Below are positions 6,371 through 33,451 of a stretch of 64,000 nucleotides of DNA, piece by piece. Under the pieces are notes generated by a model that did no database searches, had not been told where the DNA came from, and was given only the letters and a program-made list of their open reading frames with translations. Both the position numbers and the translations under genes were made by a program. The DNA comes from an uncultured Planctomycetota bacterium (GTDB lineage Bacteria > Planctomycetota > Planctomycetia > Isosphaerales > Isosphaeraceae), in assembly GCA_963823665.1 (NCBI GenBank), contig CAWGMQ010000007.1, positions 288,001 through 352,000 of the forward strand, read 5' to 3'. The first letter of the stretch is position 1, and each line of letters begins with the position of its first letter.

Positions 6371-7065
6371 TTGCGGTGCATGAGGCCGTAGTGGGCCGTC
6401 GCTTTGATGCGCACTGCGGGCGATTCAAACGTGAGGTTGCACAGGACGACCCGCGGCTCGAGGCGATTCTGGCGCTACTCGGGCCGCTTGAGGGCCGGCG
6501 GGTGCTGGATCTGGGGTGCGGCAAGGGGCGATTTGCGCGGAGCTTGGTGGCGCTGGGAGCGGAGGTGGTCGGGCTGGACCTCTCCGCGGGGATGCTAGCT
6601 GAAGCGCACGGGCTGTTGAGGGTGCGGGGCTCGGCGCGCCGGCTTCCGTTTGGCGGCGGGAGATTCGACGCGGTGGTGGCGGTCGAGGTTTTCGAGCATC
6701 TGGCGCCTGGGTCGATCGGTCGCGTGTGCGGAGAGGTTCTGCGCGTGCTCGGGCCGGGGGGAACGTTTGTGGTCATCGACAAGAACGCGTGGTCGTGGAA
6801 TGCCCGCCGTCCGTGGCTGCCGAGCCTCGCCGTGAAATGGATCGACGAGCGGCGGGGCCTGTGGATGTACGGGCCGGGGGATCCGGTGCGGGAGCGTTGG
6901 TTCGCTCCGCGGGCGCTCGAGCGGCTGCTGCTGCGGTGGTTTCCCGTGGTGCGAGTGCGGCATCTTCTTTCCCGGGGCGAAGCAGGGCGGTTTCCCTTTC
7001 AGTGGGTGCCGGCTTCGCGGCTCCTCGTACTGTGGGCGGCGACGGCGCCGGGAGGGAAAGCGTGA
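6367..7065 (+). CDS. Class I SAM-dependent methyltransferase
   Basis: VLDLGCGKG, VVGLDLS and FDAVVAVEVFEHL; ATGA overlap with the upstream gene. Confidence 0.92.
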   Translation: MIAVHEAVVGRRFDAHCGRFKREVAQDDPRLEAILALLGPLEGRRVLDLGCGKGRFARSLVALGAEVVGLDLSAGMLAEAHGLLRVRGSARRLPFGGGRFDAVVAVEVFEHLAPGSIGRVCGEVLRVLGPGGTFVVIDKNAWSWNARRPWLPSLAVKWIDERRGLWMYGPGDPVRERWFAPRALERLLLRWFPVVRVRHLLSRGEAGRFPFQWVPASRLLVLWAATAPGGKA

Positions 7066-15988: not shown

Positions 15989-17194
15989 ATGATGCCGACG
16001 AGACTGACGAAACTCCACGTGTCGAACTATCGGGCGCTAGCGGACGTGGACTTAGCGCTTGGTCCAATCAACGTGCTCTTCGGGCCCAACGGCACCGGAA
16101 AGTCAACGCTGCTCGACACGATCTGGTTTGTTCGGGATTGCGCAATTCGTGGTGTCGAAGCCGCATCAAATGCACGCGATCACGGAATAGGCTTGCTGTA
16201 TGACGGCGCGGCGGAGGGCAGCTCGATCGCTGTCGCGCTCGAGACGGAAGCGGCGCGATACGAGCTCGCGCTCGAATTCTCCGCGGGCCGCATCGAGCCT
16301 ATGGCCGGGGAGCGCCTGGAGTCGATCGTTCGTGGCAAGAAGCTGATCCAGCGTGTTGCTGGAACCGGTCGAGCCGACTTTTTCCACGTGGAGCTGGGGC
16401 AATCGGCGAACTTTGAGCTTCGCGAGCCGGAGAAGCTGAGTCTTGCCAGGTACCTCGACTACACTCGCTGCGACGAAGCGGCCGATATGGACGGCATTCT
16501 CCGGCACGTTCGGAGTTATCACTCGCGGTCGTTTCACGTTTATCAGTTAAAGAAGTATGGGTCAGAGAGCGGGTATGAGACCACGCTTTGGTCGTTTGCG
16601 AACAACTTGTGGTCGGTCATCCGCAACCTCGAAGCCAAGCGCCGCCTCGACGATCGGTATGAAACGATTCTCAGCTACATGCGGAAGGCGTTCCCTCGCT
16701 CATTCGAGGATATCGTCATCGAGCAGACGGGGCCGAACTCGCTCTATGCGAAGTTCATCGAAAAAGGTCGGCGACAGCCAATTCTGGCATCAGGCGTCTC
16801 GGATGGCCACATCCAATTGCTAATCCTTCTCACCGCGCTCTTTTCTGAAGGTCGGGACCGTTCCTCTTTTCTCCTGATCGACGAGCCGGAGACCTCGCTG
16901 CACCCTTGGGCCTTGGCGGTCTTCGCCGAGGCGATGATCGAGGTCGCTCAGCAGTGGAACAGGCAGATTCTTCTAGCCACGCACTCGCCCGTTCTGATTA
17001 GCCAGTTCGACCCCGACTCGATTCTGAGTGTCGAAACACGCGACGGCCGCGTGAGCGTCGCGCGATTAAGCGAGATTCCGGGGATCCAAGACCTGCTTGA
17101 GCAATACGCCGCTGGATCGCTCTTCATGAGTGAAATGATCGCGAGCCAAAATGCCGATCAGGTTACCCACGGCACGCCCAGAGGGGATGGGTGA
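15989..17194 (+). CDS. ABC-type (AAA_21/RecF-like) ATPase
   Basis: Walker A GPNGTGKS, signature VSDG, Walker B LLIDEPETSLHP and H-loop ATHSP. Confidence 0.92.
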   Translation: MMPTRLTKLHVSNYRALADVDLALGPINVLFGPNGTGKSTLLDTIWFVRDCAIRGVEAASNARDHGIGLLYDGAAEGSSIAVALETEAARYELALEFSAGRIEPMAGERLESIVRGKKLIQRVAGTGRADFFHVELGQSANFELREPEKLSLARYLDYTRCDEAADMDGILRHVRSYHSRSFHVYQLKKYGSESGYETTLWSFANNLWSVIRNLEAKRRLDDRYETILSYMRKAFPRSFEDIVIEQTGPNSLYAKFIEKGRRQPILASGVSDGHIQLLILLTALFSEGRDRSSFLLIDEPETSLHPWALAVFAEAMIEVAQQWNRQILLATHSPVLISQFDPDSILSVETRDGRVSVARLSEIPGIQDLLEQYAAGSLFMSEMIASQNADQVTHGTPRGDG

Positions 17195-17973
17195 TGAGTG
17201 AGGGCGGAGAGATCTCCGAGTGGCCTTTCCACAAGTTTGCGCTGTTCGTCACTGGCGATGGCGAGCGGGATTTCCTGCCGCTACTGGTCCGCCTTCTGGA
17301 GACGGACGGACATTGTCTTTTCCGTGTCGTCCACCAATTGGGCCAACGCAGTCCGATCCGCTCGAAGGCAAAGTCGTTGGAGATGGTCGGCCGGGGCAAG
17401 GAGATTCCCGATAAGGATGAGGAAATTGGGCTGAAAGCCCGTAAGTACCTCGCCGAGGGATACCATTACGTCGTGCTCATCGACGACCTCGAACATGCGC
17501 GGTCCGAGATGGCAGAGGCGGTGTATGATCGATATCGACGAGCCTTTGATGTGATGCTCAGCCCGCTCGGTCTCCAATCCAAGGCGTCGGTTCACTTCCT
17601 GGTCAACATGCTCGAAGCTTACTATTTTGCCGACGCGCAGGCTATAAACCGTGTGCTCGGCACCCAACTCGTGGATTTCGAGGGTGACGTCGAAACAATC
17701 CCTCTCCCGAAGAACCAACTCAAATCGCTTGCTTCCTCATTAGGGAAGGGGAGAAGTTTCGATGAAGTTAAAGACGGAAAGGCGATCATGCAGCAGCTCG
17801 ATGTCGCCAAGGTCCTCTCGCGACCGGAGACCTGCCGCTCGCTGAGGACGGCGTTCGCCTGGTGCAGTCGAGCAATGGGGATGCGGCCGACCGAGCGATT
17901 TCGCCTTGTCGACGGGTCGCTCTTTCCGGTCACCGCCGTGCAGCTCGATTCGCTCGCGCCCGTCTCCGGCTGA
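17191..17973 (+). CDS. DUF4276/TOPRIM-like protein, partner of the ATPase
   Basis: GTGA overlap with the ATPase; FVTGDGERDF, VLIDDLE, MLEAYYFAD, PK and C-terminal CRSL motifs. Confidence 0.7.
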   Translation: MMSEGGEISEWPFHKFALFVTGDGERDFLPLLVRLLETDGHCLFRVVHQLGQRSPIRSKAKSLEMVGRGKEIPDKDEEIGLKARKYLAEGYHYVVLIDDLEHARSEMAEAVYDRYRRAFDVMLSPLGLQSKASVHFLVNMLEAYYFADAQAINRVLGTQLVDFEGDVETIPLPKNQLKSLASSLGKGRSFDEVKDGKAIMQQLDVAKVLSRPETCRSLRTAFAWCSRAMGMRPTERFRLVDGSLFPVTAVQLDSLAPVSG

Positions 17974-18130: not shown

Positions 18131-21100
18131 ATGCCGATTTACACGCGTCAGTATGCCGAGGTCTTTGAGAACGCACGGGCGGCCGAGGATGCGGTCCGGC
18201 GGTATCTCACGCTCGTGGAGACTGACCTGCGGGAGACGTCGCTCTTGGCGATGGCTTCCTGGCAGGACGCGGGGATTCCTCGTGATCTCTGGAAGCCGGC
18301 GCTGCCGAATCTGTTCCGGGTGGCGGCGGGGCTTCAGGAGCCGTCGTTCGGGCGGTGGAATGGCATGCTGCACGCGCTGCGCGAGGCGCTGGCCTGCGTG
18401 GGGACGACAAGCGAGGCGGCACGGTCGCCCAGTGCGCTCATCGCCATTCTCGACTGGCTGCGGACCCCGGCCGAACTGGAGGCGATCGAATCGCTTCGGG
18501 CGCTGGCGCCGCTGCTGCACTACAGCCTGCCGGCGCGGGCGAGCCGGTGGGATGCGATCAGCCTTTCAGTCTGCCTGCGCAATCGGATCGCCCACGACGC
18601 GGCCGGGGACGAGGCGTGGTGGGCCGCGATCGTCCCCATGGTACGCTCTCTCTCCGCTTCCTTTGCGGCTGTGCCGCCATGCCTCGAACGCGAGGGGCTG
18701 GTTTATCCCCAGCCGTGGTTCCTCGAGAGGCAGGGGATCTGGCATGCCTTCAGCGGCATCCGCGGGGAATACGCTCTCTTTTCCTCCATCGGCGGACAAT
18801 CGCTCCGGGTTTCGCTCAACGAGACGGAGCTGATCGATGCGTTCCAGCAGTTGCTCGGCCAGGCCGAGCTTCAGCAGTCTTCGTTTCGAGAGCTGATGAA
18901 GCGACTCGCCCCGGAGGAGCACAAGGGGGTGCTCGTCGGCGACTTTTTGCTCGGTCCGCCGGCCGCGGAAGGGGGGTTTGCGGTCGTGCACCGCGGCTAC
19001 CAGCTCAGCATCGAGCGAAAGGTTGCTCTCAAGGTCTTCCCGGATGCGCTCACGCAGTCGAAGCGGGCGCTCTTGCGGAGGGAAGCCGAACGGCTGGGTG
19101 CGTTCAATTCGCCGGAGATCGTCCGGCTGATCGGCTTCTACGAGGAGATTCCCTGGACCGCACCGCGCGAGATCAGCCTGACGGGTGAAGCATGGTTCGA
19201 GGCGCTCAAGAAGGGATCCGGATTCAAAACGTTCCTGGCTATGGAGTGGGTCGGCGGCGAGGATCTTGCGGCGGTCATCGACCGTCCGGCCGCGAATCGG
19301 CCCCCGATCGACGTTCTGATCGGCTGGTTTGAGACGAGCGCCCTTGCGCTGGCGAAGGTGCATGCCGCGGGGCTGACCCATATGGATGTGACTCCGAACA
19401 ACATCCGGGTCACGCCCGAGGGGCAGATCAAGCTGATGGATTTCGGGATCGCGCGCAGCGAGACCGAGCGCCAGGACTTGATGACCCGCACGAGACTGGG
19501 CGTCGGCACGCCGGCCTACATGGCTGCGGAGCAATTTGACGACCAGGGCAACCGTCAATCGGATGTTTATTCGCTTTGTGCCACGTTTTATGAGTCGTTC
19601 ACCGGCCGCCGGCTGTATGACCACGATCGGATCGACCTTCAGGAAGTGAATCGCCGGAAGCGGGAGGGAATCGCGCCTGAGTCACCTCGGAGCATTCGGT
19701 CCGAGATTCCGTGGGAGGTCGAGACGCTTCTTCTCGGGGGCTTGCATGTCGAGCCGGGGCTCCGGCCCACGAGCCGGCAGGTCGCCGACGATTTGCGGCG
19801 AATCATCGAGAATCGGCCGATCAAGTACCGGCGGCCGCCGCTGCATCGCCGGGTGCGGCTGTGGTATCGCCGGCACCAGGCGGCGGTTCGGGTGGCGGCG
19901 CCAGCCTTGGCTGGGCTGTTGTTCGTGGCGATCGTGCTTGGGGTTTTCTGGCGGGGAGCTGAGAGGCGATCGGGCGAGCTGGGGAAAGAGGTTGGCACGC
20001 TTGCAAAGAAGGCGGAATCCGAGTCAAAACGGGCGGAAACGGAGGCCGGGAGGGCGAAAGACCAGGAACGGCTCAAGTTCTTGCAGCAATACATCGCCGA
20101 TATGAGGCTGTTGCCGGGGTGGTGGAAGGACGCCCGCGTGGACCTCATTCGCGACCGATTACGGCCGTATGCCACCGCGGCCACCTACGATCCTCGCGGG
20201 TTTGAGTGGTATTACTGGGACCGCCTGGTGAGCGCGGCAAGCGCGACTTGGAAGCCCGAGGATCGGACCCGTTCGCTCGACTGGTCTGCTGACGGCAAGA
20301 CGCTCTATGCGGCGGACGTGAAAGGGCGGGTACTCGCCTGGAACCGCGCAACCGCGGAGAGCCGGCAGGTTCGCGGCGCGGGCTCGGGTGCGATCGCGGT
20401 GACCTCCGCTCCGAGCGGTTCGAAGCTTGCGATCACGACTGCTGCGATCAGGCGCACGGCGGGCGAGCCGCCGGAGTCGTCGTCGATCGAGATCATTGAC
20501 ACGGAGACGGGCGGCGAGCTGCGCAAGATCACGACACGGGGGTTTGGCTTCCGAGCCGCGGCGTTCGGCCCGAACGGCCGGCGAATCGTGACGAGCGATG
20601 TCGCGACCAATCTTTGGGTGTGGGATGCCGTGAGCGGGAAGCCCGAGGTCGACCTGGTGCACAACCCGAACGCACGCCGGGACTTGACGAACCCGATGGA
20701 GGTGCTTGGCGCCCACGACCCGCATCAAGGGCCGGTGCACGCGCTGGCGTTCAGTCCGGTCGATGCGACCGTGGTTGCCAGCGGCGGCGACGATGGGGCG
20801 ATCGGGCTCTGGAACACTCGAACCGGGCGGCACCTGGGATGGCTCGGCGAGCGACGCGGCAGTGTGGCCTCAGTCTCCTTCAGCCGTGACGGCACGAAGC
20901 TGGTGAGCCACTCGCTGCCAAGACCGGCCGGTCAGTTCCATCGCGTGGCGATCCCCGCGGAAATCGACGTCTGGCGAGTGCAATCGCATGAGCGGATTCG
21001 GCGGATTGAACTGGCCGATGAGTACGAGGGTATCACGTCCGACGGGTTCTCGATTCGCAAGGGGAACTTTCGCGCCGACTTCGTGGGAGACGATCGTTTG

Positions 21101-24100
21101 ATCGCCGCGGCGATCGGGAACGTGGTTCGGGTCTGGGATCTCGCAACGGGGTTCGTCGTCAAAGAGCTTAAAGGGCATACCGCGACGATCAACGCCCTGC
21201 GCGCCTCGCCTGACGGCGTGCTCGTGGCCAGCGCGGACGCGGGCGGCGAGGTGCGGATCTGGAACCTGAACGAATCCGAGGAGATGGAGACAATCCGGCA
21301 ATTCGAGGGGCCGGCCCGCTCCGTCGCGTCATCTTCCGCTGCCGGCGAACGCCTGGTGGCGTTGTATGAGTCACCGGGCAGCACGTCATCGAACGGCACG
21401 GTCGATCCGAGCGAAAGCCGCAATCTATATATCTTCAACCGGTCGGGTGGGGCTGAAGCGCCGCCCGAGAGGGGAAGCGGTTACTACCTCGGCACGGCCC
21501 AATCGCCGGCAGGGGGCCGCATTGCCACGTTTGACATGCTCAAGGAAGAGATCATCGTGTGGGAAACTGCGAATGGAAAAGTGATCCGGGTTTTTCCCGT
21601 GAAGCGAAAGGAAGAGGAGCCGAAGGGCAGGAACCGCGGGGGCTCACGTGAGAAAACGGACGTGCGTAGTTTGGCGTTTCGCGATGAAAAAGATTTGTAC
21701 GCGGTGACGGGCGAGGGGCTCTGGCGATTGCGGGTAGACTCGGGCGCTCTTGAGACGGTCGCGGGCCTGGCGGTCGGCTCGTCTCCGAAAGAGGCGACAC
21801 CCGACTTGCTTGTCCTCGAAGACGCGGTGATGGCGCTTTGCTTTTCACCAGACGGACGGATGGCCGCAGCGGGCACCGGTGGGAGGCAGGTGATCGTTTA
21901 CGATGCGGGCACATGGAAGGAGCTCGCGCGGTTGCGCGGCCATTCGCGTGGGATCACCGGGATCGCGTTCTCGAGTGATGGCCGGCGGCTCGCCAGCAGC
22001 AGCGGACGATATTTCCGGCTGGGGGCGGCGGAAGCGAACGACCGGCCGGGCGAGGTGATCGTGTGGGACACGACGACCTGGGAGGACTGCCTGCGACTGA
22101 CTCATCCCGACGCGTCTGAGTTTGCGGGGGTCGCATTCGGCGATCGCGATCGCACGCTCTTCGCCGCGGCGAATCCCGTAACAGTTAGCCCGGGCAAGCT
22201 TCCCCGCGGCGAGATTGTGCGCTGGGTGAGCACGGCCGGCGTCGCGCGGATCGCGGCAGCGGCCAATGCCGCGCGTTCGACGGCCGATTCGGCCGCTCGA
22301 GTGCGTCTCCGCGAGAGCAAGCCTGTTGGATTGCCGCCGGCTTCAACCAAGCTGTCGCGTTCGGGCGAGACAAAGCCGCTCGAAGGGGCCGTATTCCGCT
22401 CACCCGGCATGTTCATGGGCATCGCCGGCGTCACCGGCTTCACGTCGGTGGCGGTTCATCCAACCGGCGAGCTGATCGCCGCGGCAACGATCATCAGCCG
22501 GCTGATACTCTGGGATGCTCGAACTCAGGAGGTTGTGGCGGAGGCCGTTCTTCCGCCGGTTTCCTGGCCGGGATACGAGATCACGTTTAGCCCGGACGGC
22601 TCGCACTTGATCTGCACCATCGGTGACGACGCGTTCGTCCGGTCGATTCCAGGCCTGGGCGAGGCAAATTTCGAGGACGCCGCGCTGAACTTGAGACCGG
22701 AGATCGCGGCGACGATACGCCGGATCAAGATCGGCGGCGAGACGGTTCCTCTCCGACCCGCCTACTCGATGGAGGGTGCTTCACCGTTCAGCCGGGACGG
22801 CCAGCTCCAGGCGCTGGCCACGCGGGGAGACTCGCCCGCCCTCGAGGTCATTTCGGTGCCGAAGAAGTCGAAGTTGTTTTCGGTGCCGCTTGCAGGCCCG
22901 CCGATCCAAGTTGGCGTCTCGGCTAATGGCAAGGTCGCTTATGCCGTCACCCGGCCCAGCGTCGCCAAGGGAGGCGCCTGTGCCGGCCTCGGCGCTCGAG
23001 CGATGGGAGGTTCCGGGCGGGAAACCGCTCGGGGTTACCAAGGGCATGATGAACCTGGTCGCGCTGTCTCCGGATCTGGAACGATCGCTTGAGATGGCGA
23101 ACGGGATCGAGCTGTATGCGCGAACTATCCACGGGGCAGCGTGCGGCGGCACCGTTTGCCACCGAGGCGGGTTTTAGGGGGGTCGCGTTTTTCCCGGACG
23201 GCGAGCACGTGGCGACGTTCGGAGGTCAGAACTGGACGAAGGTATGGAAGATATCCACTTTGCTAAAGATCCCTGAGAACTTGCTGTTCCGCGCGGTGGG
23301 AACGCTGCTCGTCGCGCCTGACGAGAAGACGATTGCCTACGTCGATGCGTACGGCTGGCCCGCGCTGTACGACGTGGCGCGGCACCGAGCGAGCAAGCTG
23401 GCTCTCGACACCGCGCCGCGGGTTGGGGCAGCGAAGGCCGGCTCACGGCCGCGAACGCGCGGAAGCGACAATGCTGCACGTATGCATGGGCTGGTGCCAT
23501 GGCACTTCACGCCCGACGGACGAACGCTCGTGGCTGCTGCGTTCGCCGGAAGCGCACGCGCGAATCCGACGGCGTTCGACGTGAATCGCGGGGTCGAGGT
23601 TCCGATCGAAACGCTGCCCGAGGACGTCCGCCCGCCCGGTGCTCCCGCGGGCCAGAGCTTCCGGGGGTTCTTGCTTGCGATGCACGCAGCGTCCGACTCG
23701 AAGATGTTCTACTTGCTCCAGAGCATGCAGCAAGGCGCACCGCGAGGGGTTCGGAGCGAGCCGCCGTATCTGCTGTGGGATGGGGCCCAATCGCATACCG
23801 TACCGGCCCTGGGCGAGACGGCAGGCGGATTGAAGTTGCCGTGCTTCAGTGAGCGAGGCACTTTCGTGGCGGGTTTGCTGCCGGGAATCCGCCGGCGCAC
23901 CAAAGGCGCGGTCGAGCAGTCGGGCCCGGCGGTTGTCGTCCTTTCGACGAGCGACGGCAAACTCGTTTCGCGAATTCCATGCGGAAGCGATGATGTGATC
24001 TCGCTTCGGTTCACAGGCGCCGAGGACGCGCTGTTATTGCACCAGCGAGTTACGGGCAAGGCGACGGCGCTGGGGGAATTCTCACTGGCCGCGTTTGATC

Positions 24101-24990
24101 CCAGGAGTGGACGCGAGCTAAATCGACGCGCCGGCCTCCGGACCACTTTCCTGGCAGTGTCGGACGACGGAGGGCGTCTGGCTTCGCCGGTTGAGGGTGC
24201 GATCTTGATTGAATCGCCCGCAACGAAAACCGAGCTTGGGCGGATCGCGTTTGACGACTGGCCGATGCAACCCGTTGCCTTCCTGGCGGCCGGCACGAAG
24301 CTGATCACTACGGGAGCAAACGGGGCGATCCGGCTCTGGGACAGCTCGGGCCGTCCGATCGCGGTTCCGCGGCTCCAGGAGGTCGTTCCAATCGTCGAGC
24401 CGGTTGCACCCGCGACCAAGGCGAACGTGCCCGTGCCAAGGGCTCCGGCCGCACCGCGGCGACCAGCAACGGCGAAAGCTGGAAAGCCGAGCCAAGCGCG
24501 ACTGGCCGACGAGCTGAAAGAGATGGCCGTGCGTCTCAATGGTTCGCCGCAGGGCGCCTACCGTGGGCGGTTTCCCGCGCTCGCGGCCGGGTGCGAGATG
24601 CTGGCCTCGAAACTGGCGGCCGGTGAGACTCCCACGGCGGATATCGCCAAGGAGATGGAGCGGTTTATCAAAGATGCGAAGGACCTGAAAGAAGAAGGAG
24701 GGAAGCACTCGCCCTTCAAGGACTTCAACACGACGTACACGGATCGCAGCGGGCGCAGCGGACTGCCCGGATACAAGGCCAAGTTCTTTCACGAGGCGCG
24801 TGATCTCTTCGGCAAGACTATGTCCCGATCAAGAGAGACGCCCATCCTGTACGGGCAGCGGCTGTTCGCGGAGATGATCATGACGCTCGAACGGCAGATC
24901 GAGGACCTCACGGGCAAGCTGCCGGATTCGTCGCTGCTGGAGGAATGGCGAAAGGCGGGGCCAGAGAGCGGTGACAAACCGGGAGGGTGA
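18131..24990 (+). CDS. Giant protein (~2290 aa): HEPN-like N-terminus, Ser/Thr kinase, TM/coiled coil, multiple WD40 propellers (frameshifts near 22975 and 23115)
   Basis: LRNRIAH; kinase motifs EGGFAVV, VALK, HMDVTPNN, DFG, GTPAYMAAE and SDVYS; RGFEWYYW; many WD40 repeats (e.g. GHSRGITGIAFSSDG). ORFs 18131-23092 and 23089-24990 are bridged by a third frame reading LERWEVPGGKPLG. Confidence 0.85.
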
Positions 24991-25073: not shown

Positions 25074-27005
25074 ATGGCGAAATCGCGTGGCACGGGTGAT
25101 TGGCTGTTACTCGAGGAGAAGCTGGAGCGAGGCGACCCTTCGTTCGTGGACGATCTGCGATCGTTTCACGACGCCGAGGTCCTGGCCGGGTTTGCCGCTC
25201 GCTGGTTTGGGGACAAGCGGCCGGCATCGCGGCGCGTGATGCTGGAATACCTCGATCGTCCGCTGAACGCCTTTCGGCATGAGGCGCTGGTGAAGCGGCT
25301 CTTCAAGGCGGCCGAGGCTGCCGGCGATGATGAGGTCATGGCGCGGTTCCTGGTGCTTTTCGACCGCTCGGTGCGCCGGGAGGAGTGGCGGAGGCGGCAC
25401 GTGGAATGGGCGAAGGTCAAGACGGAAGCGGCCGCGCAGGAACTCATGGCTCACTGGCGTGCCCTGGGCTTTGACAGCGTTCAATCCTTCAACTGGCAGC
25501 GCGGGACGATCCAGATTCGCGGTGACTGGCACGAGGTGCGTCTTGGGATGCCTACACGCACCGCGATGCCGCGCGACGAGATGAAGCATCGAAATCCTCG
25601 CACGGGCGAGCTGATTTCGGACATCAACACGCGGCTCCAGAAGTGGTTCGGAAATCATCGCGTGGGAGAGCCGGTTCCACGCCGGGTGCAAAAGCTGATC
25701 GAGCGGCTGCGTCTGTTCTCGGTGGCCACGCGGCAGTACTTGAGGCGCAGGGCCTGGCGCTACTTCCGGCGAATGGGCAAGACGAACCCGCAGCGGTACG
25801 TCGCGGCCATGTCGCGGGCGCTGGAGCGATACACCGATGGCGACGTTGCCGACGGACTCGCGCTGATTGATAACTGGGGTCTCATGCATGCGCTTTTTCA
25901 TCGGAGCGAGATTCTGACGGCAAAGCCGGGAGGGTGGGTTCCGACCGAAGGGCGCTCGCTTGCAGAGCTTTCACCCGCGCCGATCTACGAACGGCTGTGG
26001 GAGCAGGCGCCGCGGGCTCTTGTCGAGTTGCTGTTTGCCGCGCGGTGCCGGCCAGTGAGGCAGTGGGCCGTCCAGATGATTCGCCGGCATGATGGCGCCC
26101 GCGCGGCCGTCAAGCTCGACGAGCTGATCGGTCTGCTCGCTCATGAAGAGGCGGACGTCGTGGCGCTGGCGGTCGAGCTTTTCCGGGAGATGAAGGGCAT
26201 CGACACGCTTGCTGTCGATCAGTGGATAGAGCTGGTCGAGAAGGCTAACCCCTCGGTGCTTGAGTGGATCGTCGAGCTGCTGGAGAGGTTCTTCGATTCC
26301 GAGCGGGTGACGCTTGCGCAGGTGGTCAGGCTTGCGCGATGCCGCAGAGTGCCCGTTGCGCGGGTGGGTTTGAAGTGGCTCTCGAACAAGGTGCCGCAGC
26401 ATGCGGCGGCCGACACCTTGCTGCTGGGTCTCACGGAGGCGGAGTGTGAGCCGCTGCGCGGGCAGATCGTGCGATTGGTCAGGGAACGACTGGCGGCAAC
26501 CACGCGGTTCGATCCAAGCTGGGTGCTCGAGTTTCTGGATAGCCGGCATGCCGACGTGCGCGCCGAAGGGATCGAGTGGTTCCGGTCGGAATCGCGTGCT
26601 CGCGACGACGTGACGATCTGGCCACGGCTGATGGAAACTCCCTACGACGATGTGCGCCTGTTCTTGATCTCGGCGCTGGAATCTCGCGTAGGCGGGCGCG
26701 ACGTCGACCGCGCGGTATCTCACGGGTTGGATCCGGAGGCGTTGCGGCTGCTCTGGGCGTCGGTGCTCCTGAACATCCAACGGGGTAGCCGGGCCAAGCC
26801 GACGGTCGTGCGGCAGCTCGTGCGGGCGATGAAACGCAGGCCGGCGGATGCGGAATTGGTCTTGCCGATTCTGGCTGTGGCGCTGCGATCGTCCCGCGGG
26901 CCTGAGCGCCGGGTGGGGCTGGCGGCGGTGGCGGAACTGGTCGAGGGGGATGTGCAGACGACGAAGGTACTCGCCGCGATTTTTCCGGAGTTGAAGTTAC
27001 TGTGA
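25074..27005 (+). CDS. HEAT/ARM-like alpha-solenoid protein, retron-associated
   Basis: Helical Leu/Ala/Arg-rich repeats (LDSRHADVRAEG, LMETPYDDVRLFL); LFSVATRQYLRRRAWRYFR; directly upstream of the ncRNA, SWIM and RT genes. Confidence 0.75.
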   Translation: MAKSRGTGDWLLLEEKLERGDPSFVDDLRSFHDAEVLAGFAARWFGDKRPASRRVMLEYLDRPLNAFRHEALVKRLFKAAEAAGDDEVMARFLVLFDRSVRREEWRRRHVEWAKVKTEAAAQELMAHWRALGFDSVQSFNWQRGTIQIRGDWHEVRLGMPTRTAMPRDEMKHRNPRTGELISDINTRLQKWFGNHRVGEPVPRRVQKLIERLRLFSVATRQYLRRRAWRYFRRMGKTNPQRYVAAMSRALERYTDGDVADGLALIDNWGLMHALFHRSEILTAKPGGWVPTEGRSLAELSPAPIYERLWEQAPRALVELLFAARCRPVRQWAVQMIRRHDGARAAVKLDELIGLLAHEEADVVALAVELFREMKGIDTLAVDQWIELVEKANPSVLEWIVELLERFFDSERVTLAQVVRLARCRRVPVARVGLKWLSNKVPQHAAADTLLLGLTEAECEPLRGQIVRLVRERLAATTRFDPSWVLEFLDSRHADVRAEGIEWFRSESRARDDVTIWPRLMETPYDDVRLFLISALESRVGGRDVDRAVSHGLDPEALRLLWASVLLNIQRGSRAKPTVVRQLVRAMKRRPADAELVLPILAVALRSSRGPERRVGLAAVAELVEGDVQTTKVLAAIFPELKLL

Positions 27006-27029
27006 GTTCGTGTGATGATTTGAACCTCA

Positions 27030-27267
27030 ATGATCTCGCGGGCGGCCGGGTCGGGAACCGAGAACCTGAATGCTGCGGCGTTCCGCCGCGGCCGACATTG
27101 GCCCAGCCTTTGCGTCCCCGAGGCCGTTGTTCTTTCGCTGCCGGTGCACCGTCGCCGTGGCACTGAGCCGACGGACGGTCTGCCACAGCGACGGTGCACC
27201 GGCAGCTCGGTGAACGACCTCGGTCCGTGCCTCGAAGTCGGTCCGGCCCGGCCGCCCGCGGGATCAT
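27030..27267 (+). ncRNA. Retron msr-msd ncRNA
   Basis: Terminal inverted repeat 27030-27055/27242-27267 (26 bp, 3 G-U pairs); msr-like hairpin 27072-27092; long msd hairpin 27137-27162/27181-27206 with outer stem 27118-27128/27213-27223. Confidence 0.85.
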
Positions 27268-27298
27268 CGTCCTTTCTGCTGCGGAAGAACATTTCAGC

Positions 27299-28994
27299 AT
27301 GAATCTGACGCTTCAATATCGGAGGCGAAGTGCGATCACGGAGGTGCCGGAGGGTCTGGATGTCACGCTGGCGCCGAACCTGCGGCGCGACCGCGTGAGC
27401 TTCGAAGGGACACTCCGGCATCCGGTGCGGTTTCGGGAAGCGATGGGGGCGCTGCACGACGTGGTGGTGAGCGACTTGCGATACCAGCCGCGCGACAAGA
27501 CGGCTTACGAGGCATACAAAGCCGAGCAGCGGAATCGCGAGGCAGGAATTCGCCGTCAGGTGGAGTCGCAGGAAAGAGCGGCGATTCTCAAGCAAGCGTT
27601 GCCCGAGTTGCCTGAGGGTTATGTCGCGGACCTCGAACGGCGCTACCGAAAGCTGCGCAAGAGCTACTGGGGGGCGCGGCAGAAGTACTCGAATTACCTG
27701 AGCCGGCACGATCCGGAACTCTGGCGGCTGCTCTTTCCGTGCGACCCGGTGATCACGGTGGCGCCGGATTGCCTCTTTTTCGAGTGTTTCAGCGCGGACG
27801 AAAGCAGCTACGGCTGCTTGACCGTGGAGCGCGCGGCGTTCGAGCGCGAGCGCGACGTCGCGCTCGGGACGACGAATGTCGATTATTCGTGGGCCTTATA
27901 TGAGCACTTTCAGAAGCTGCGGAGCTATCGCGAGACGCGGTTTGCGATTGATCCTTCTGGGTTCGAGGTCGCGGTTGACCAGGCCGGCGATTATCGCGAG
28001 GAGAAGATTGACTTGCCGGGGGGTTGGCTGCGCGGGTTCATGCAGCTTCAGGCGGCCATGAGCTTGCCGATGCGCAGGGTGGGGATTTCGCGTGAAGGGC
28101 TTTATTCGATCCTGGCGTTTCTCAGGCGGCACCGGGCGGCGAAGAGCCCGCGGGCGCTGCGGTTTGAGCTGGAGCGCGGGCGGCCGCCGGCGATCGTGCT
28201 GGAGCCGTGGGAAGAGCGGATCACGCTGCACGGAACTGCTTATGGCGGCCCGCGCGACGAGACGATTCGCGTCTGGGGGCGCGACCGGCTGCGCCCTGGG
28301 ACGCCTGCTGCCGCTACTGGACGAAGCGGAGGTTTATCTGCTGGGTACCGGTCTGCCGAGCTTCTGGTCGATTCGGATGGGAGAGATGCGGCTGCTTCTG
28401 GGGCTTTCGGGCTGGACGGCCAACGACTGGACGGGCACCGCTGCGCTTGATCAGCTCGGGCCGCCGGCCGATCCGAGCGATGCGCTGCTGGGCGACATCG
28501 CGGCGACGTTCGAGAAGTCGCCAGCCTTGACGTTCAGCCAGATTCGTGAGCGAACCGGGGCTGCGCCGGCGTTTGTCGCGGCGGGGTTGTGCCGGCTGGC
28601 CTCGCTGGGGCAGGTCATTCACGATTTGCACGCGGGCCTGTATCGATGGCGGCAGGTCATGCCGGTGGCACTTTCTCTGGATGAGCTTGGGCCCGAGAGC
28701 CCGGAGACGGTGGCGGGTCGCGAACTGTATTACCGGCGGACCGTGCGGGTTGACCGCGATGTAAAGCGGGGCGACGGCCTGCGCATTCTTGAGGGCGAAT
28801 CGGGAGGGCGGGTGGTCTCGCTGTTGCTTGATGCGGATTGGCGAATGGTGCGCGGGCGCTGCACGTGCTCGCACCATTTCACAGGTGGGATGCGACGTGG
28901 GCCGTGCCGGCATTTGCAGGCGCTTCGCCTGGCCACGACTGGGGCGAAACAAGCGTCGAGCGTCGAGGCCTGGTTCCAATCGTTTTTCCAGTAA
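27299..28994 (+). CDS. SWIM zinc-finger domain protein, retron-associated (~565 aa; frameshift near 28295)
   Basis: C-terminal GRCTCSHH...GPCRHLQAL (CxC..CxH); N-terminal DPVITV..FECFSADESSYG and GTTNVDYS; WGRDRLR continues as LGRLLPLL in the next frame. Confidence 0.85.
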
Positions 28995-29005
28995 CAGGGC
29001 AGGGC

Positions 29006-30594
29006 ATGGGCTGGTTCGCGCGGGTGTTGCAATGGTTATTGGGGGGCCGCGATCGCGGGGCCAGCCGCGGTGCTGGCGCGTCGCCTGCGGTCGAGGCGGA
29101 CCCGTACTTCGCCGGGTCGCCCGCGCCGGTCATCAAGAAGTCGAAGAACTTCGAGCTTGATGCGGGTGCGTTCTTGCCGATCGCGCGTGAAGAGATTATC
29201 GGAACGGCGCGCGGGCGGAATCTGCTGGCGAATCCGTGGTTTGGAAGGCGTGATCAGATTCCGCCCGTTAGCGATCGGCGTACGGTGCTCATTGACCGCG
29301 CGATGGTGACTCAGGGGCTGATCACTCCGGAAGAGCTGGCCGAGATTCACAGCGCCGGCGAGGAGATGGAGCGGGTCAGGCCGAGCATCGCTGGTACGGA
29401 GCATCAGGCAGCGCTCGCGGGCTCTGCGGCGGTCGAGGCTGAGAATGAGGCCCGCTTGCGGCTCAAGGCTTTGAAGAAGGAAGAGGCTGCGCGGCGGCGA
29501 GAGGAGCGTCAAGCGGCGATTGCGCATCGGCGAGCGACCGACATCGTTTTTCTGGGCGCGGGGTTTCGGCGCAATTGCACGACCGACAGAGCGATCTCGA
29601 TCGTCTGGCCGCGGAGGGGCTGCCCTCGCTGAGCACGCCTGGGGAGCTGGCGGCGGCGCTCGGGCTTACGATTCCGCGCTTGCGCTGGCTGGCTTTCCAC
29701 AGCGAGGCGGCGACGGTTTCTCACTACATCCGGTTCACGATACCGAAGCGCAGCGGCGGCACGCGCACGCTGGCGACGCCGCACCGCACGATGGCGCGAA
29801 TGCAGCGCTGGATCTTGACCGAGATCGTGTCGAAGCTGCGGGTGGAATCGCATGCTCATGGTTTTGTGACCGGGCGCAGCATCCTGACGAATGCTCGCGA
29901 GCACGCGAACCGGGCGATTGTGGTGAATCTGGATTTGAAGGATTTCTTTCCGAGCATCGGGTTTCCGCGGGTGAGAAGTGTTTTCAAGAGCGCCGGATAT
30001 TCGCCGGCCGTGGCGACGATTCTGGCGCTCCTTTGCACGGAGTGCCCGCGACGGGCGATTGAGTACGACGGCGTGCGGTATTTCGCGGCGACCGGGCAGC
30101 GCGGGTTACCGCAAGGGGCGTGCACGAGCCCGGGGCTTTCAAACCTGGTGGCGAGGCGGCTGGACCGGCGTCTGGGCGGGCTCGCGGGCAAGCTGGGTAT
30201 CAGCTATTCGCGGTATGCAGATGATTTGACTTTTTCCGGCAATGGCGAACTCGAGGGGCGCGTCGGGTACTTGATGGCACGAGTGCGGCATATTGCGGAC
30301 GATGAAGGCTTCGCCGTGAATGAGGCTAAGAGCCGGGTGTTGCGGCGCAATACGGCGCAGATGGTGACGGGCCTGGTGGTGAACAGCCGGCCTGGGGTTG
30401 CCCGGGCGGAGGTGCGGCGGCTGCGGGCGATTTTGCATCGGGCGCGGACGGAAGGATTGGAGCGCCAGAATCGGGAGGGGCGGCGGGATTTTGTTGCCTG
30501 GCTGCGCGGGAAGATTGCGTTTGTGGCGATGGCGCGGCCGGAGGTGGGGGCGAAGCTGCTGGGTGACCTACAGAGTGTGCTGGGGAGGAGCTGA
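29006..30594 (+). CDS. Retron reverse transcriptase, Mx162-like with N-terminal extension (~529 aa; one-base frameshift near 29555)
   Basis: IPKRSGGTR, AHGFVTGRSILTNAREH (retron NAxxH), DLKDFFPS, LPQGACTSP, YADDLTFS and VTGLVVN (retron VTG). No maturase or endonuclease domain. Confidence 0.93.
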
Positions 30595-30706: not shown

Positions 30707-30916
30707 TTACTTGCTTTTATGACGACGACCGCCAATTAGCAGCAGGCCACCCGAGAGCAAGGCGATGGCACCCGTCGCCAAGCTGGGATCCATCTCAGGG
30801 GCCGTCGATCTTGCAACGGCCGTGGCCGAGCAAGCGCTCAGAACGAGTACAAATCCAACGGCCCATGAAACCGTTGGCAAAGCCTTTGGGGCCCACTTTG
30901 GCGAATCTGGCTTCAT
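30707..30916 (-). CDS. 69-aa secreted peptide with a VPEID-CTERM-like sorting signal
   Basis: RBS AAGGAGG; signal peptide ending AVA; APEMDP, TM helix and basic tail GRRHKSK. Confidence 0.8.
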   Translation of the reverse strand: MKPDSPKWAPKALPTVSWAVGFVLVLSACSATAVARSTAPEMDPSLATGAIALLSGGLLLIGGRRHKSK

Positions 30917-31413
30917 CGACAATACCTCCTTGGTAATTGAGGGGAACTCCGGGGGCAATGCGCCGCGGACGTGTGTTCATCATGATACTGCATCAAAACT
31001 GAAACCTGAGCCCAACATAAGCAATTGTTCTAGAACGTTCAACATGCTCGCACAGATTTCGGATCCGAACGAATCAGGACGGAGCGCAGAGGTCCTTGAT
31101 GTGGTGCCGGGGCGGTGGCGCACATGCGATTTCGACATCGCGGGAGGCTTCGCACGTGTCGCGCGTTGTCGAGGTAGGCACGGGCTCCCTCGTGCCGGTC
31201 TTGCCGCAACAAGTCTTTGAGGATGTAGCGTCTGCCAGCGGGTTCTACGAGGTCAAGCTCGCGGGCGGAATCTCGAGGCTGATGCTCGAGGACGCAAACC
31301 AGCCTCTAACAGAAGCGAACGAAGGAAACGATGGGGGAGACAATTCAACGGCATTCGTGATTCCTGGTATCATCACAAGCCGACGAATTACTCTCGTGGG
31401 GAGTCATCGGCCA

Positions 31414-31494
31414 ATGTCTGATTCGGTTCGAGTGCTGCTGGACTCATTCGATGCTCTCTCGGAGACTGAACGCGCGGAGGGCTCGCGACGATGA
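31414..31494 (+). pseudogene. Truncated copy of the small protein at 32479-32685
   Basis: MSDSVRVLLDSFDALSETER, then divergence and an early stop. Confidence 0.7.
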
Positions 31495-31637
31495 GGTTCA
31501 CGGTCACGAAAGTCGTCGACGGCGCGTTCAGCTCCGATGAAGTTCGCCGGCTCACCCATTCGCCTTCGCAGGATGGAATCAGGAGCGGGGGTCAGAAATT
31601 CGTGTTATGCCTCAATAACGAGGACAGGACGGGGGCG

Positions 31638-31935
31638 TTAGCGGCGTGGTGCCGCTGACTTTGAGCCGCGGCGCGGCGCCCGCGCCAGAAACGCCGACGG
31701 AGCGATGGCGAAGTGCTCGGCGAGCTTGAGGACCTGCCCCTTGGTGAGGGAGCGTGCGCCGGAGAGGACTGCCGAGATGGTGGACTGCGCGATCCCGACC
31801 GATTTTGCCAAGTCCGTCTGGCTGAGACCGCCCGCTCGCATCAGCTCGCGAAGTACGTCGGACTCGGAGACATCCGCGATCGGGACGTGCGCCTCGTCGT
31901 AGCCGGCGATCAGGTCGGTCAAGACGCCGACGTAG
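31638..31935 (-). pseudogene. 3' half of a HigA-like antitoxin
   Basis: Near-identical to the C-terminus of 32849-33304 (SQTDLAKSVGIAQSTISAVLSGARSLT); the 5' half is missing. Confidence 0.8.
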
Positions 31936-32064
31936 TGCCGGGTCGAAACTGGCTTCGAAAAGCCCTTCCTGATGTTTCGCTACGGATAGCGCGAACGCCA
32001 GGGCAGGTTCAGGGATTGGTCCGTCCGGTCGAGGACCACCGCGTTAGCTCGGAGAGGCGGGCTC

Positions 32065-32274
32065 TTACTTGCTTCTGCGACGACCGCTAATTAACAGCAG
32101 GCCACCCGAAAGCAATGCCATGGCACTCGTCGCCAAGCTCGGATCCATCTCAGGGGCTATTGTAGGACCTGCCAGGGCCGGGGCCGAGCAAGCGCTCATA
32201 ACGAGGACAAATCCAAGGGCCCACGAAACCGATGGCAAAACCTTCGAGGGCGATTTTTGCGAAACTGGTTTCAT
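32065..32274 (-). CDS. 69-aa secreted peptide with a VPEID-CTERM-like sorting signal (paralog)
   Basis: RBS GGAGG; signal peptide ending ALA; APEMDPSLATSAMALLSGGLLLISGRRRSK. Confidence 0.8.
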   Translation of the reverse strand: MKPVSQKSPSKVLPSVSWALGFVLVMSACSAPALAGPTIAPEMDPSLATSAMALLSGGLLLISGRRRSK

Positions 32275-32478
32275 CGACGATACCTCCCTGGCGATTGAAC
32301 CGAACCCGGGGCGAAGCGCCGCGGATGTACTTTCGTCAAGATACTGTGACGAGACTGAAATCAGCGGGGGTTCAGCATACGCGATTGTGCTGGAACATTC
32401 AACGACTGGCCCGAGTCATCCGTGATTCCTGGTATAATCACAAGCAGACGGATTACTCTCGTGGGGAGTCATCGGCCA

Positions 32479-32685
32479 ATGTCTGATTCGGTTCGAGCGC
32501 TGCTGGACTCATTCGATGCTGTTTCGGAGACGGAACGCATCGAAGCTGCGGTCGAGATACTCCGGCGCGTGAGGTCGACAAAGTCCGAACTGCCGGATGA
32601 CGCGTTGGTGGAAGCTGCGGACAGTTTGTTCTTACTGCTCGACGCCGAGGAAGAGGGCGCTGGGGAACGATCGGACGAACCGTGA
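32479..32685 (+). CDS. Small acidic hypothetical protein (antitoxin-like)
   Basis: RBS GGGGAG; MSDSVRALLDSFDAVSETERIEAAVEILRR..LPDDALVEAADSLFLLLDAEE. Confidence 0.65.
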   Translation: MSDSVRALLDSFDAVSETERIEAAVEILRRVRSTKSELPDDALVEAADSLFLLLDAEEEGAGERSDEP

Positions 32686-32848
32686 TTCGGAGGTCAATGT
32701 GGTGGGCGACACGGTTCTTTTGTTTCTCCATCACAGTTTCATCGTCAGGCTCAAGGTAACCAGAGTCGTGAAGGGCAAATTCGAATATAGTGATTGTGCG
32801 GGTACCGCGAGCTGGTTCTCACTTTGCTGACCGGCATTATAAGGGCGA

Positions 32849-33304
32849 TTAGAGGCGTGATGCCGCTGACTTTGAGCCGCGGCGCGGCGTTCGCGGCAGG
32901 AACGCCGACGGCGCAATAGCGAAGTGCTTGGCGAGCTTGAGGACCTGCCCCTTCGTGAGGGAGCGTGCGCCCGAGAGAACTGCCGAGATGGTGGACTGCG
33001 CGATCCCGACCGATTTTGCCAACTCGGTCTGGCTGAGGCCGTTGGCTCGCATCAGCTCACGCAGCACGTAGGACTCGGAAACATCAGCAATCGGGACGTG
33101 CGCGTCTTCATAGGCTGCGATCAGGTCGGTCAAGACGTCCAGGTAGGCTTGGGCCCCTTCATCCCGGTCTTGCCGCAACAAGTCATTCATTACCTCGAGG
33201 GCCTCATCCAAGTGAGCCTCGTCCCTCAGGTGGATGAGCGGGAAATGCTTGACGAGTTTCAAGTAGGTGTCCGGCACCCTCCGGGCGGTAGCTTTCGCAG
33301 GCAT
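32849..33304 (-). CDS. higA: HigA-like HTH antitoxin
   Basis: YLDVLTDLIAAYE, LRELMRANGLSQTELA and HTH; RBS GAGGAGG. Confidence 0.85.
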   Translation of the reverse strand: MPAKATARRVPDTYLKLVKHFPLIHLRDEAHLDEALEVMNDLLRQDRDEGAQAYLDVLTDLIAAYEDAHVPIADVSESYVLRELMRANGLSQTELAKSVGIAQSTISAVLSGARSLTKGQVLKLAKHFAIAPSAFLPRTPRRGSKSAASRL

Positions 33305-33307
33305 CTG

Positions 33308-33451
33308 TCAATTCCTCCTCGTCCGCGAATGAGTAGTTTTCGTCCCGGATGCTGGGGACTTCTTCGCGCCCGGTAGCGGGCTCGGCGGTGGCTGGTATCA
33401 CCCGCAATCAACGATCCAGCGTGCCTTGTCATACTCTTTGTGGTCCATCAC
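33308..33451 (-). pseudogene. C-terminal remnant of a HigB-like toxin
   Basis: Minus strand reads VMDHKEYDKARWIVDCG*YQPPP just upstream of higA (HxEYD motif). It has an internal stop and no recognisable 5' part. Confidence 0.65.

Follow-up and report, generated by a model that had tools for sequence, protein, structure and literature searches.

A type XIII retron locus in an Isosphaeraceae genome

The window analysed here, a 64,000-nt stretch of an uncultured Isosphaeraceae bacterium (positions 288,001-352,000 of contig CAWGMQ010000007.1, assembly GCA_963823665.1), contains a type XIII retron with four elements on the + strand: a HEAT/ARM-repeat gene, a noncoding RNA (ncRNA), a SWIM gene and a reverse transcriptase (RT) gene (Table 1). 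The ncRNA lies in a 293-nt gap between the HEAT/ARM (hereafter ARM) and SWIM genes, and 11 bp separate the SWIM stop (28994) from the RT ATG (29006). This arrangement, with the RT motifs NAREH, YADD and VTGLVV, is as described in the original prediction, made from the sequence alone, of a complete Mx162-like retron. The top PADLOC matches of the three proteins are HEAT-ARM_XIII, SWIM_XIII and RT_XIII, the next best model for the RT core being RT_other at 359 bits. These models stand for the type to which Retron-Mxa1 (Mx162), Mxa2 (Mx65), Sau1 (Sa163) and Nex2 (Ne144) belong.

Type XIII (RT clade 10) was defined in 2020 by Mestre et al. (PMC7736814). The window locus shares with the published type an ARM gene preceding the SWIM gene, with WGR optional; a SWIM protein of cluster 114 with DEDE positions, winged helix and C-terminal CxCx12CxH; an extended RT N-terminus; and an msr-msd RNA with a1/a2 repeat, priming G, msr hairpin and long msd stem. 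It differs from known members in the position of the RNA between ARM and SWIM, in the priming context and in the absence of WGR. As predicted, the ARM protein has no WGR match in Pfam at E<=0.1, and its match to PADLOC WGR_XIII spans only positions 248-502 of the 973-position profile; the type as published already allows for ARM partners without WGR (PMC7736814, Table 1). "Mx162-like" is valid for the clade only, because the priming context is GAGA and not the CAGC of Mx162; the multicopy single-stranded DNA (msDNA) would also be shorter, about 125-130 nt rather than 162. Planctomycete members are already published, with 26 of 143 tabulated type XIII candidates coming from Planctomycetota (PMC13712802), and within its class the locus is unremarkable. 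The predicted planctomycete affiliation was borne out by a quick tree of 46 RTs (Mx162 RT not included), in which the window RT groups among RTs of ARM-SWIM loci, within a starred set of 12 rows that are mostly Isosphaeraceae.

Table 1. Features of the retron locus (window coordinates)
Feature	Position	Strand	Basis
HEAT/ARM-repeat accessory protein, 643 aa, no WGR	25074-27005	+	PADLOC HEAT-ARM_XIII, E 3.8e-190
msr-msd ncRNA, single copy in genome	27030-27267	+	fold z -8.5; covariance model 192 bits (model built in part from this copy)
a1 arm, outer 27030-27054, inner 27058-27061; pairs with a2 27238-27267	27030-27061	+	25-nt inverted repeat, 92%
Predicted branching (priming) guanosine	27062	+	conserved G directly 3' of a1 stem
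msr stem-loop, 9 bp, 3-nt loop; likely RT recognition element	27072-27092	+	inverted repeat
msd long hairpin, 26 bp, putative template of msDNA duplex	27137-27206	+	inverted repeat; one mismatch
a2 arm	27238-27267	+	inverted repeat with a1; alignment pairing
SWIM_XIII protein, about 565 aa, frame break near 28294	27299-28994	+	PADLOC SWIM_XIII; relative's model
N-terminal strands, then predicted PCNA-type clamp fold with long helical insertion	clamp ~27398-28415	+	model of 72%-identical relative
Winged helix in SWIM protein	~28479-28652	+	weak profile matches, best E 0.003
SWIM finger CxCx12CxH	28860-28913	+	read directly
Retron RT, about 530 aa: N-terminal amphipathic helix, linker, charged extension, core; break near 29554-29563	29006-30594	+	RT_XIII 476 bits; alignment with 8 relatives
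RT motif NAREH (NAxxH)	29890-29904	+	read directly
RT motif YADD	30214-30225	+	read directly
RT motif VTGLVV	30364-30381	+	read directly

The msr-msd RNA

The intergenic RNA folds at -173.5 kcal/mol, and none of 200 shuffled sequences was equally stable. In its anatomy, 25-nt a1/a2 arms enclose the 9-bp msr hairpin and an msd with two stems, an outer one and an inner one of 26 bp. A covariance model built from 17 copies, including that of the window, yielded 95 matches in 89 sources; this genome has a single match, the locus. In the model-fitted alignment 97.7% of cells pair, with a covariation score of 0.645 as compared to 0.155 when shuffled and at most 0.10 when slid, and the a1/a2 inner stem is paired at 99.7%. 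An Rfam scan found no retron family and gave two sub-threshold chance matches at E<=5.

The two hairpins exhibit opposite mismatches. Across 85 full copies, which are related and so not independent, G-U cells number 191 in the msr hairpin, where A-C is absent, whereas the msd stem has 3 G-U and 17 A-C (2 and 18 in an alignment-free count); the one mismatch in the window's msd hairpin is C-A in the RNA and G-T in the cDNA. This difference argues that the front of the molecule folds as RNA and the msd stem as its DNA copy. The predicted priming guanosine follows the rule of a G 3' of a1 (PMC6868368), and its GAGA context is found here and in 70 of 85 copies. From this anatomy the msDNA would be branched, with a predicted 3' end; published work has demonstrated msDNA synthesis in other members of clade 10.

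The length of the msd stem is conserved and its sequence is free: the stem measures 19-28 bp (median 25, 85 copies), and stem identity between loci is 0.35. Acquisition of the stem as a spacer was considered and set aside on a weak test of one arm, a 22-nt arm having no exact match in viral contigs and no exact 16-nt match occurring elsewhere in the genome. Palindromic bait sites were likewise set aside, as 6-mer palindromes occur at chance level (30/83 stems versus 26.2 shuffled, p 0.21); 4-mer palindromes are found in 72/83 stems versus 64.5 shuffled (p 0.015).

Frame breaks and intactness

Both the SWIM and the RT frame are broken. The original prediction had given each a single indel, which is correct for the RT (1 nt short within about 29554-29563, versus 8/8 relatives) and not for SWIM, which is 2 nt short near 28294 (versus 6/6 relatives). 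Relatives are open across the site in 80/80 SWIM loci and 62/62 RT loci, so both breaks are private and recoding is not conserved; programmed frameshifting was therefore rejected. Among 12 housekeeping genes assessed in the same 12-contig assembly, rpoB, rpoC and leuS are frameshifted and the other nine are not. Because the breaks are private and these genes are also frameshifted, assembly errors are likely. An extra A at 27063, present in 1 of 85 RNA copies and absent from a 94%-alike contig, is perhaps a third.

Were both frameshifts real, this copy would be dead. Two breaks do fall within 5.2 kb of coding sequence, and contigs of four sequencing runs include pieces identical to parts of the locus, none of which bridges either break among the matches listed. 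A dead copy is nonetheless improbable, given the frameshifts in a quarter of the housekeeping genes (3/12) and the state of the rest of the locus. Read through with X at the break, SWIM is identical to a relative at 407 of 564 residues and keeps all 40 conserved positions checked; there are no in-frame stops and no motif decay, the RNA stems are intact, and other long-contig metagenome-assembled genomes break at different places. The locus is very probably intact in the cell, as had been expected; this question is independent of mechanism.

The SWIM protein is predicted to carry a clamp fold

The two SWIM pieces match positions 1-287 and 289-506 of the 509-position SWIM_XIII profile (E 2.6e-119 and 6.5e-56). 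We modelled the SWIM protein of an intact relative (L044) with AlphaFold2 from 116 sequences without templates, and obtained a predicted local distance difference test score (pLDDT) of 90 and a predicted template modelling score (pTM) of 0.86; an earlier model from only 8 sequences (pLDDT 54) was set aside. A fold search against 48,161 chains returned PCNA, 9-1-1, beta-clamp, gp45 or herpesvirus processivity factors in all of the top 37 rows. The best match (Z 15.3, 212 residues, root-mean-square deviation (rmsd) 2.7 A) aligns model residues 35-372 with residues 1-244 of the chain, a whole PCNA subunit, so that both domains of the clamp are represented in the relative's model. In this search and a repeat of it, a whole two-domain subunit superposes on model residues 34-372 with Z 15.3-15.6 over 212-213 residues at rmsd 2.6-2.7 A. 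Foldseek on PDB and viral models gave the same clamp answer. The SWIM module of the model resembles ZSWIM8 (Z 7.7). Taken from this model, the SWIM protein is predicted to combine a PCNA-type two-domain clamp fold, a winged helix and a Zn finger. It differs from PCNA-type clamps in its low identity (6-14%), a helical insertion of about 90 residues after the first helix of the fold, and extra N-terminal strands in addition to the winged helix and finger; its helical face is predicted to be ARM-bound, and the locus holds no clamp loader.

Mestre et al. proposed a transposase-like (DDE) nuclease with a DEDE motif for the SWIM partner (PMC7736814). The window protein has the full set of five DEDE positions (D149, D157, E162, D195, E234). 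In the relative's model these residues lie on separate strands within the range aligned to PCNA. No RNase H or transposase rows occur among the best 50 matches listed in the fold searches, although an RNase H fold of an unlisted family is possible. The model favours a clamp fold for SWIM over the proposed DDE nuclease. Atlas searches returned unnamed or SWIM clusters only. In some SWIM homologues (L051:6326-8197, P0056, P0047) the C-terminus carries a domain that is WGR-like, with a weak match (E 0.03-0.04), or BRCT (E 1e-15).

The predicted ARM-SWIM complex

A complex of ARM 24-650 and SWIM 1-372, both from one relative, was modelled with a score of 0.70, as compared to 0.04 for the best of three controls. 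Of 157 solved complexes 116 score at or above the mark, as do 2 of 215 mismatched pairs, a calibration that is only roughly valid here, where our own alignments were used. The runs agree in at least 98% of contacts, with a partner pLDDT of at least 64. In the model, ARM residues 500-619 contact SWIM residues 43-47, 201-209, 264-275 and 331-339, which are the four helices of the clamp, and ARM also contacts the SWIM edge strand 305-310 (relative's numbering). One predicted contact joins ARM E532 (E521 in the window) and SWIM R207. In PCNA the DNA channel is lined by the four helices. The C-terminal repeats of ARM (residues 489-608 in the window) are predicted to sit on this surface, the DNA-facing one in true clamps. 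Because ARM sits on the helices plus one edge strand, the SWIM clamp probably does not form a ring. The window keeps 16 of 20 ARM and 21 of 26 SWIM interface residues. The model supports ARM-SWIM binding without demonstrating it.

Elsewhere in the ARM protein, an Arg/aromatic motif is conserved near residue 224 (invariant columns, 48 sequences). The ARM profile matched only two designed repeat proteins in the PDB.

The reverse transcriptase

In a PDB sequence search with a relative's RT, the Ec86 RT was the best match (E 1e-37) and group II RTs followed at E 1e-6; there was no solved type XIII RT among the 18 PDB matches. By a strict pattern, the amphipathic start is found in 23 of 62 relatives. 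By analogy with targeting helices, this start possibly tethers the RT particle to the membrane.

RNA copies and distribution among relatives

From 565 confirmed GTDB loci we took the best 80, of which 50 hold both ARM and RT; all 50 also contain the RNA. Cultured relatives with an intact locus include those of Singulisphaera, Paludisphaera soli and Gemmata (L061-L063, L068, L085). The commonest order is that of the window, ARM-RNA-SWIM-RT (20 of 50), and 14 have ARM-SWIM-RNA-RT, in many of which the ARM stop overlaps the SWIM start. The window locus has one RNA, and 16 of the 50 relatives carry two or three, mostly with different stems. Within a locus, RNA pairs (n = 21) exhibit an identity of 0.85 in the msr and 0.46 in the stem, as compared to 0.65 and 0.35 between loci. 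At L091 the copies have identical msr and loop, and about 8 of 19 stem positions are changed on both arms; at L068 and L070, in contrast, the stems of the copies are almost the same. Some duplications must be older, because the nearest relative of a multi-copy RNA is a copy from its own locus in only 18 of 36 cases.

On the RT tree the RNA position requires at least nine changes among three states. The most distant rows have the RNA adjoining the RT, which suggests that the RNA was duplicated into the ARM-SWIM junction and that one or the other copy was then lost; the root of the tree is unsure. RT-proximal copies do not stand out in having their own promoter (TTGAC in 6/32 versus 4/42, p 0.31) or in a different a1/a2 length (pairing 34.5 versus 33.2, p 0.59), and no sigma-70 site was found in a scan of the window.

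Several loci depart from these patterns. L102:4091-4943, L042:8225-8800 and L092 have either three copies of the RNA or tandem ones whose stems are extended. Extra long perfect hairpins lie outside the modelled RNA, flanking it or after SWIM (L048:6560-6690 and 6940-7030; L042:6215-6474). The RT can lie about 22 kb from ARM-RNA-SWIM, or be accompanied by an RNA copy of its own on a different contig (L040/L041 in G035, L044/L045 in G034). A check of five genomes for RNA copies far from the operon turned up one solitary, weaker RNA-model match (69.8 bits) near a transposase-like open reading frame (ORF) (L146, G060:C1:7892494-7892727).

Close RTs (>470 bits) occur in 27 of 74 genomes of the family, a patchy presence. 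At the same threshold 2/9 in g17 and 2/8 in g31 are positive; in each of g22, g97 and g107 the system is present in all sampled species (3/3). In the same-genus genome G001 (84% complete) neither a DNA nor an RNA match was obtained.

This genome also encodes, at another locus (L055:6174-10843, G000:C3), an RT-less SWIM_XIII homologue (E 7.5e-56) followed by a 1038-aa DUF6493/DUF7824/DUF7825 protein. The pair resembles the retron in having a SWIM_XIII match followed by a partner of about 1000 aa. The locus has no RNA-model match and no type XIII RT match, and the partner is without a PADLOC match. As an RT-less SWIM and partner pair exists elsewhere in the genome, the ARM-SWIM type of pair appears to be a module that a retron has joined. 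A second retron-type RT (456 aa, RT_other/RT_outgroup, L054:7129-8499, G000:C7) lies 200 kb away, without a type XIII RNA-model match.

A proposed mechanism and its alternatives

We favour, tentatively and at somewhat less than an even chance, a type XIII retron that works as an msDNA-guarded ARM-SWIM effector against phage. The RT would prime on G27062 and copy the msd into the branched msDNA, with a duplex core of about 26 bp. ARM and SWIM would form a heterodimer, as in the predicted complex. The RT-msDNA particle, possibly membrane-tethered, may hold this pair inactive by sequence-independent binding of the msDNA duplex, whose length and not its sequence would be what is read. Other retrons suggest by analogy that the pair would be released, or the clamp face unmasked, when a phage protein binds, modifies or cuts this duplex. 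SWIM could then engage DNA or replication partners via its clamp face, winged helix and Zn finger, and the infected cell would stall. An anti-phage toxin-antitoxin role for type XIII is itself extrapolated from other retron types. We count in support of the guarded effector the type XIII matches of all three proteins, the RNA in 50 of 50 loci with its covariation and mismatch pattern, the fold and complex models, the conservation of ARM interface columns, the overlap of ARM and SWIM genes in many relatives, the stem of conserved length and free sequence, the patchy presence among family genomes, the HEC-01-like pair 7 kb upstream (see below) and the SWIM homologues fused to WGR (weak) or BRCT.

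A more specific form, which we regard as possible but doubtful, has a non-ring effector of PCNA fold caged by the HEAT/ARM protein on its DNA-facing helices and guarded by msDNA of fixed length and free sequence. RNA duplication within the operon and rapid rewriting of the stem alone would then provide one RT with a small decoy array and so widen sensing.

Several points weigh against the guarded effector. The models were made on relatives and not on the window's broken SWIM, and the C-terminal third of SWIM is outside the complex model. The link to clamps is structural only: SWIM has no clamp (PCNA) among its 43 PDB sequence matches, and profile-profile comparison with 27 beta-clamps was not significant for homology (probability 2.9%, P 0.016). 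Conservation of the SWIM interface columns (0.46) does not exceed that of the remaining clamp columns (0.52), and the greater conservation of ARM interface columns (0.78 versus 0.51 for the rest) is without control for burial or kinship. The four clamp helices are only mildly basic, with 2-4 K/R and 1-2 D/E each. The most conserved SWIM residues are acidic (E161 in 100%, D166 in 99% and D148 in 94% of 116 sequences) and lie outside the ARM interface, which leaves catalysis possible. Type XIII is reported to be vertically inherited, with a 16S correlation of 0.78 (PMC7736814). No functional test of a complete type XIII system was found in the literature, with most subscription papers outside coverage.

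The same inheritance (PMC7736814, PMC6868368) would suit a domesticated stress or DNA-damage module, in which ARM-SWIM binds DNA ends or replication intermediates, the msDNA tunes this activity and there is no abortive infection. The RT-less SWIM and DUF6493 pair, the BRCT and WGR fusions, and the genera in which every sampled species is positive (g22, g97, g107) are consistent with such a role. Many genomes are without a match to this query, however, presence is patchy within g17 and g31, the same-genus G001 is negative, and rapid turnover of the msd stem between near-identical copies is a better fit to an arms race. We consider this module unlikely.

Alternatively, the system may be the same but with SWIM as a metal-dependent nuclease or other enzyme, an acidic cluster (D148, E161, D166, E167) being placed on the clamp fold and regulated by ARM. 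The presence of all five DEDE positions, as in the proposal of Mestre et al. (PMC7736814), and the near-invariance of E161 and D166, neither of which is among the named interface residues, argue for it. The acidic residues are, however, spread over separate strands of the PCNA-aligned range, and D156, D194 and E233 are only 82-87% conserved. By strand order the E161-Y170 motif presumably lies on the loop that forms the PCNA peptide pocket, which we also count against an enzyme. On balance a catalytic SWIM is unlikely. That the clamp is a mere processivity or assembly factor of the RT, with toxicity in ARM or absent, is very improbable: two-domain clamp folds do serve polymerases (UL42, UL44 and BMRF1 rows in the fold search) and the SWIM and RT genes are closely spaced here, but homologous SWIM proteins occur without an RT, the RT can be remote from ARM-SWIM (G035), and in the predicted complex ARM already takes up the helices of the clamp.

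Neighbouring genes

A candidate defence system lies 7 kb upstream of the retron (15989-17973) and consists of a HEC-01-like pair, an ATPase (AAA_21; HEC-01A, E 3e-51) and a DUF4276 protein (HEC-01B, weak). Between this pair and the ARM gene, 18131-24990 encodes a Ser/Thr kinase with WD40 propellers. It occupies two ORFs that overlap (23089/23092) and may be a single gene that an assembly error has divided. Downstream, 30707-33400 looks like a local duplication: a short ORF of secreted appearance (30707-30958, 32065-32274) and an HTH_3 ORF resembling an antitoxin (31638-31922, 32849-33304) occur in each of two similar blocks.

Comparison with published retrons and implications

A clamp fold, an ARM-SWIM interface and multiple RNA copies per locus are all absent from the available text of PMC7736814, and in that of PMC13712802 the words "clamp", "tandem" and "copies" do not occur. 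Type XIII is not mentioned in the main texts of PMC10849725, PMC12548924, PMC8632793 and bioRxiv 2024.07.21.604473. Literature searches gave nothing relevant on several ncRNAs per retron and, among the matches listed, nothing relevant linking a retron with a clamp or PCNA. Several msr-msd copies are known in the myxobacterial lineage of Retron-Nex1 (Ne160), where they are described as lying away from an RT (Lampson and Rice 1997, cited in PMC6868368). The two or three copies in relatives of the window locus differ from these in residing within the operon; their scaffolds are nearly identical, and most differ in the stem. Beyond the published accounts searched are thus the predicted clamp fold and ARM-SWIM interface, and the observed stem of fixed length and free sequence and two to three RNA copies per locus.

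The discovery of msDNA in Myxococcus dates from 1984 (PMC8632793). Type XIII is the family of the first retron found, yet no mechanism for it was found in the literature searched; the locus sharpens this old question. The predicted clamp fold, a named ARM-SWIM interface and a duplex of fixed length and free sequence open type XIII function to mutational tests. Retron engineering could also make use of RTs that in nature work on several RNAs whose stems are free to change. The clamp fold challenges the published transposase-like proposal for SWIM and, if the clamp reading is true, a replication fold would have been turned into an immune or stress effector.

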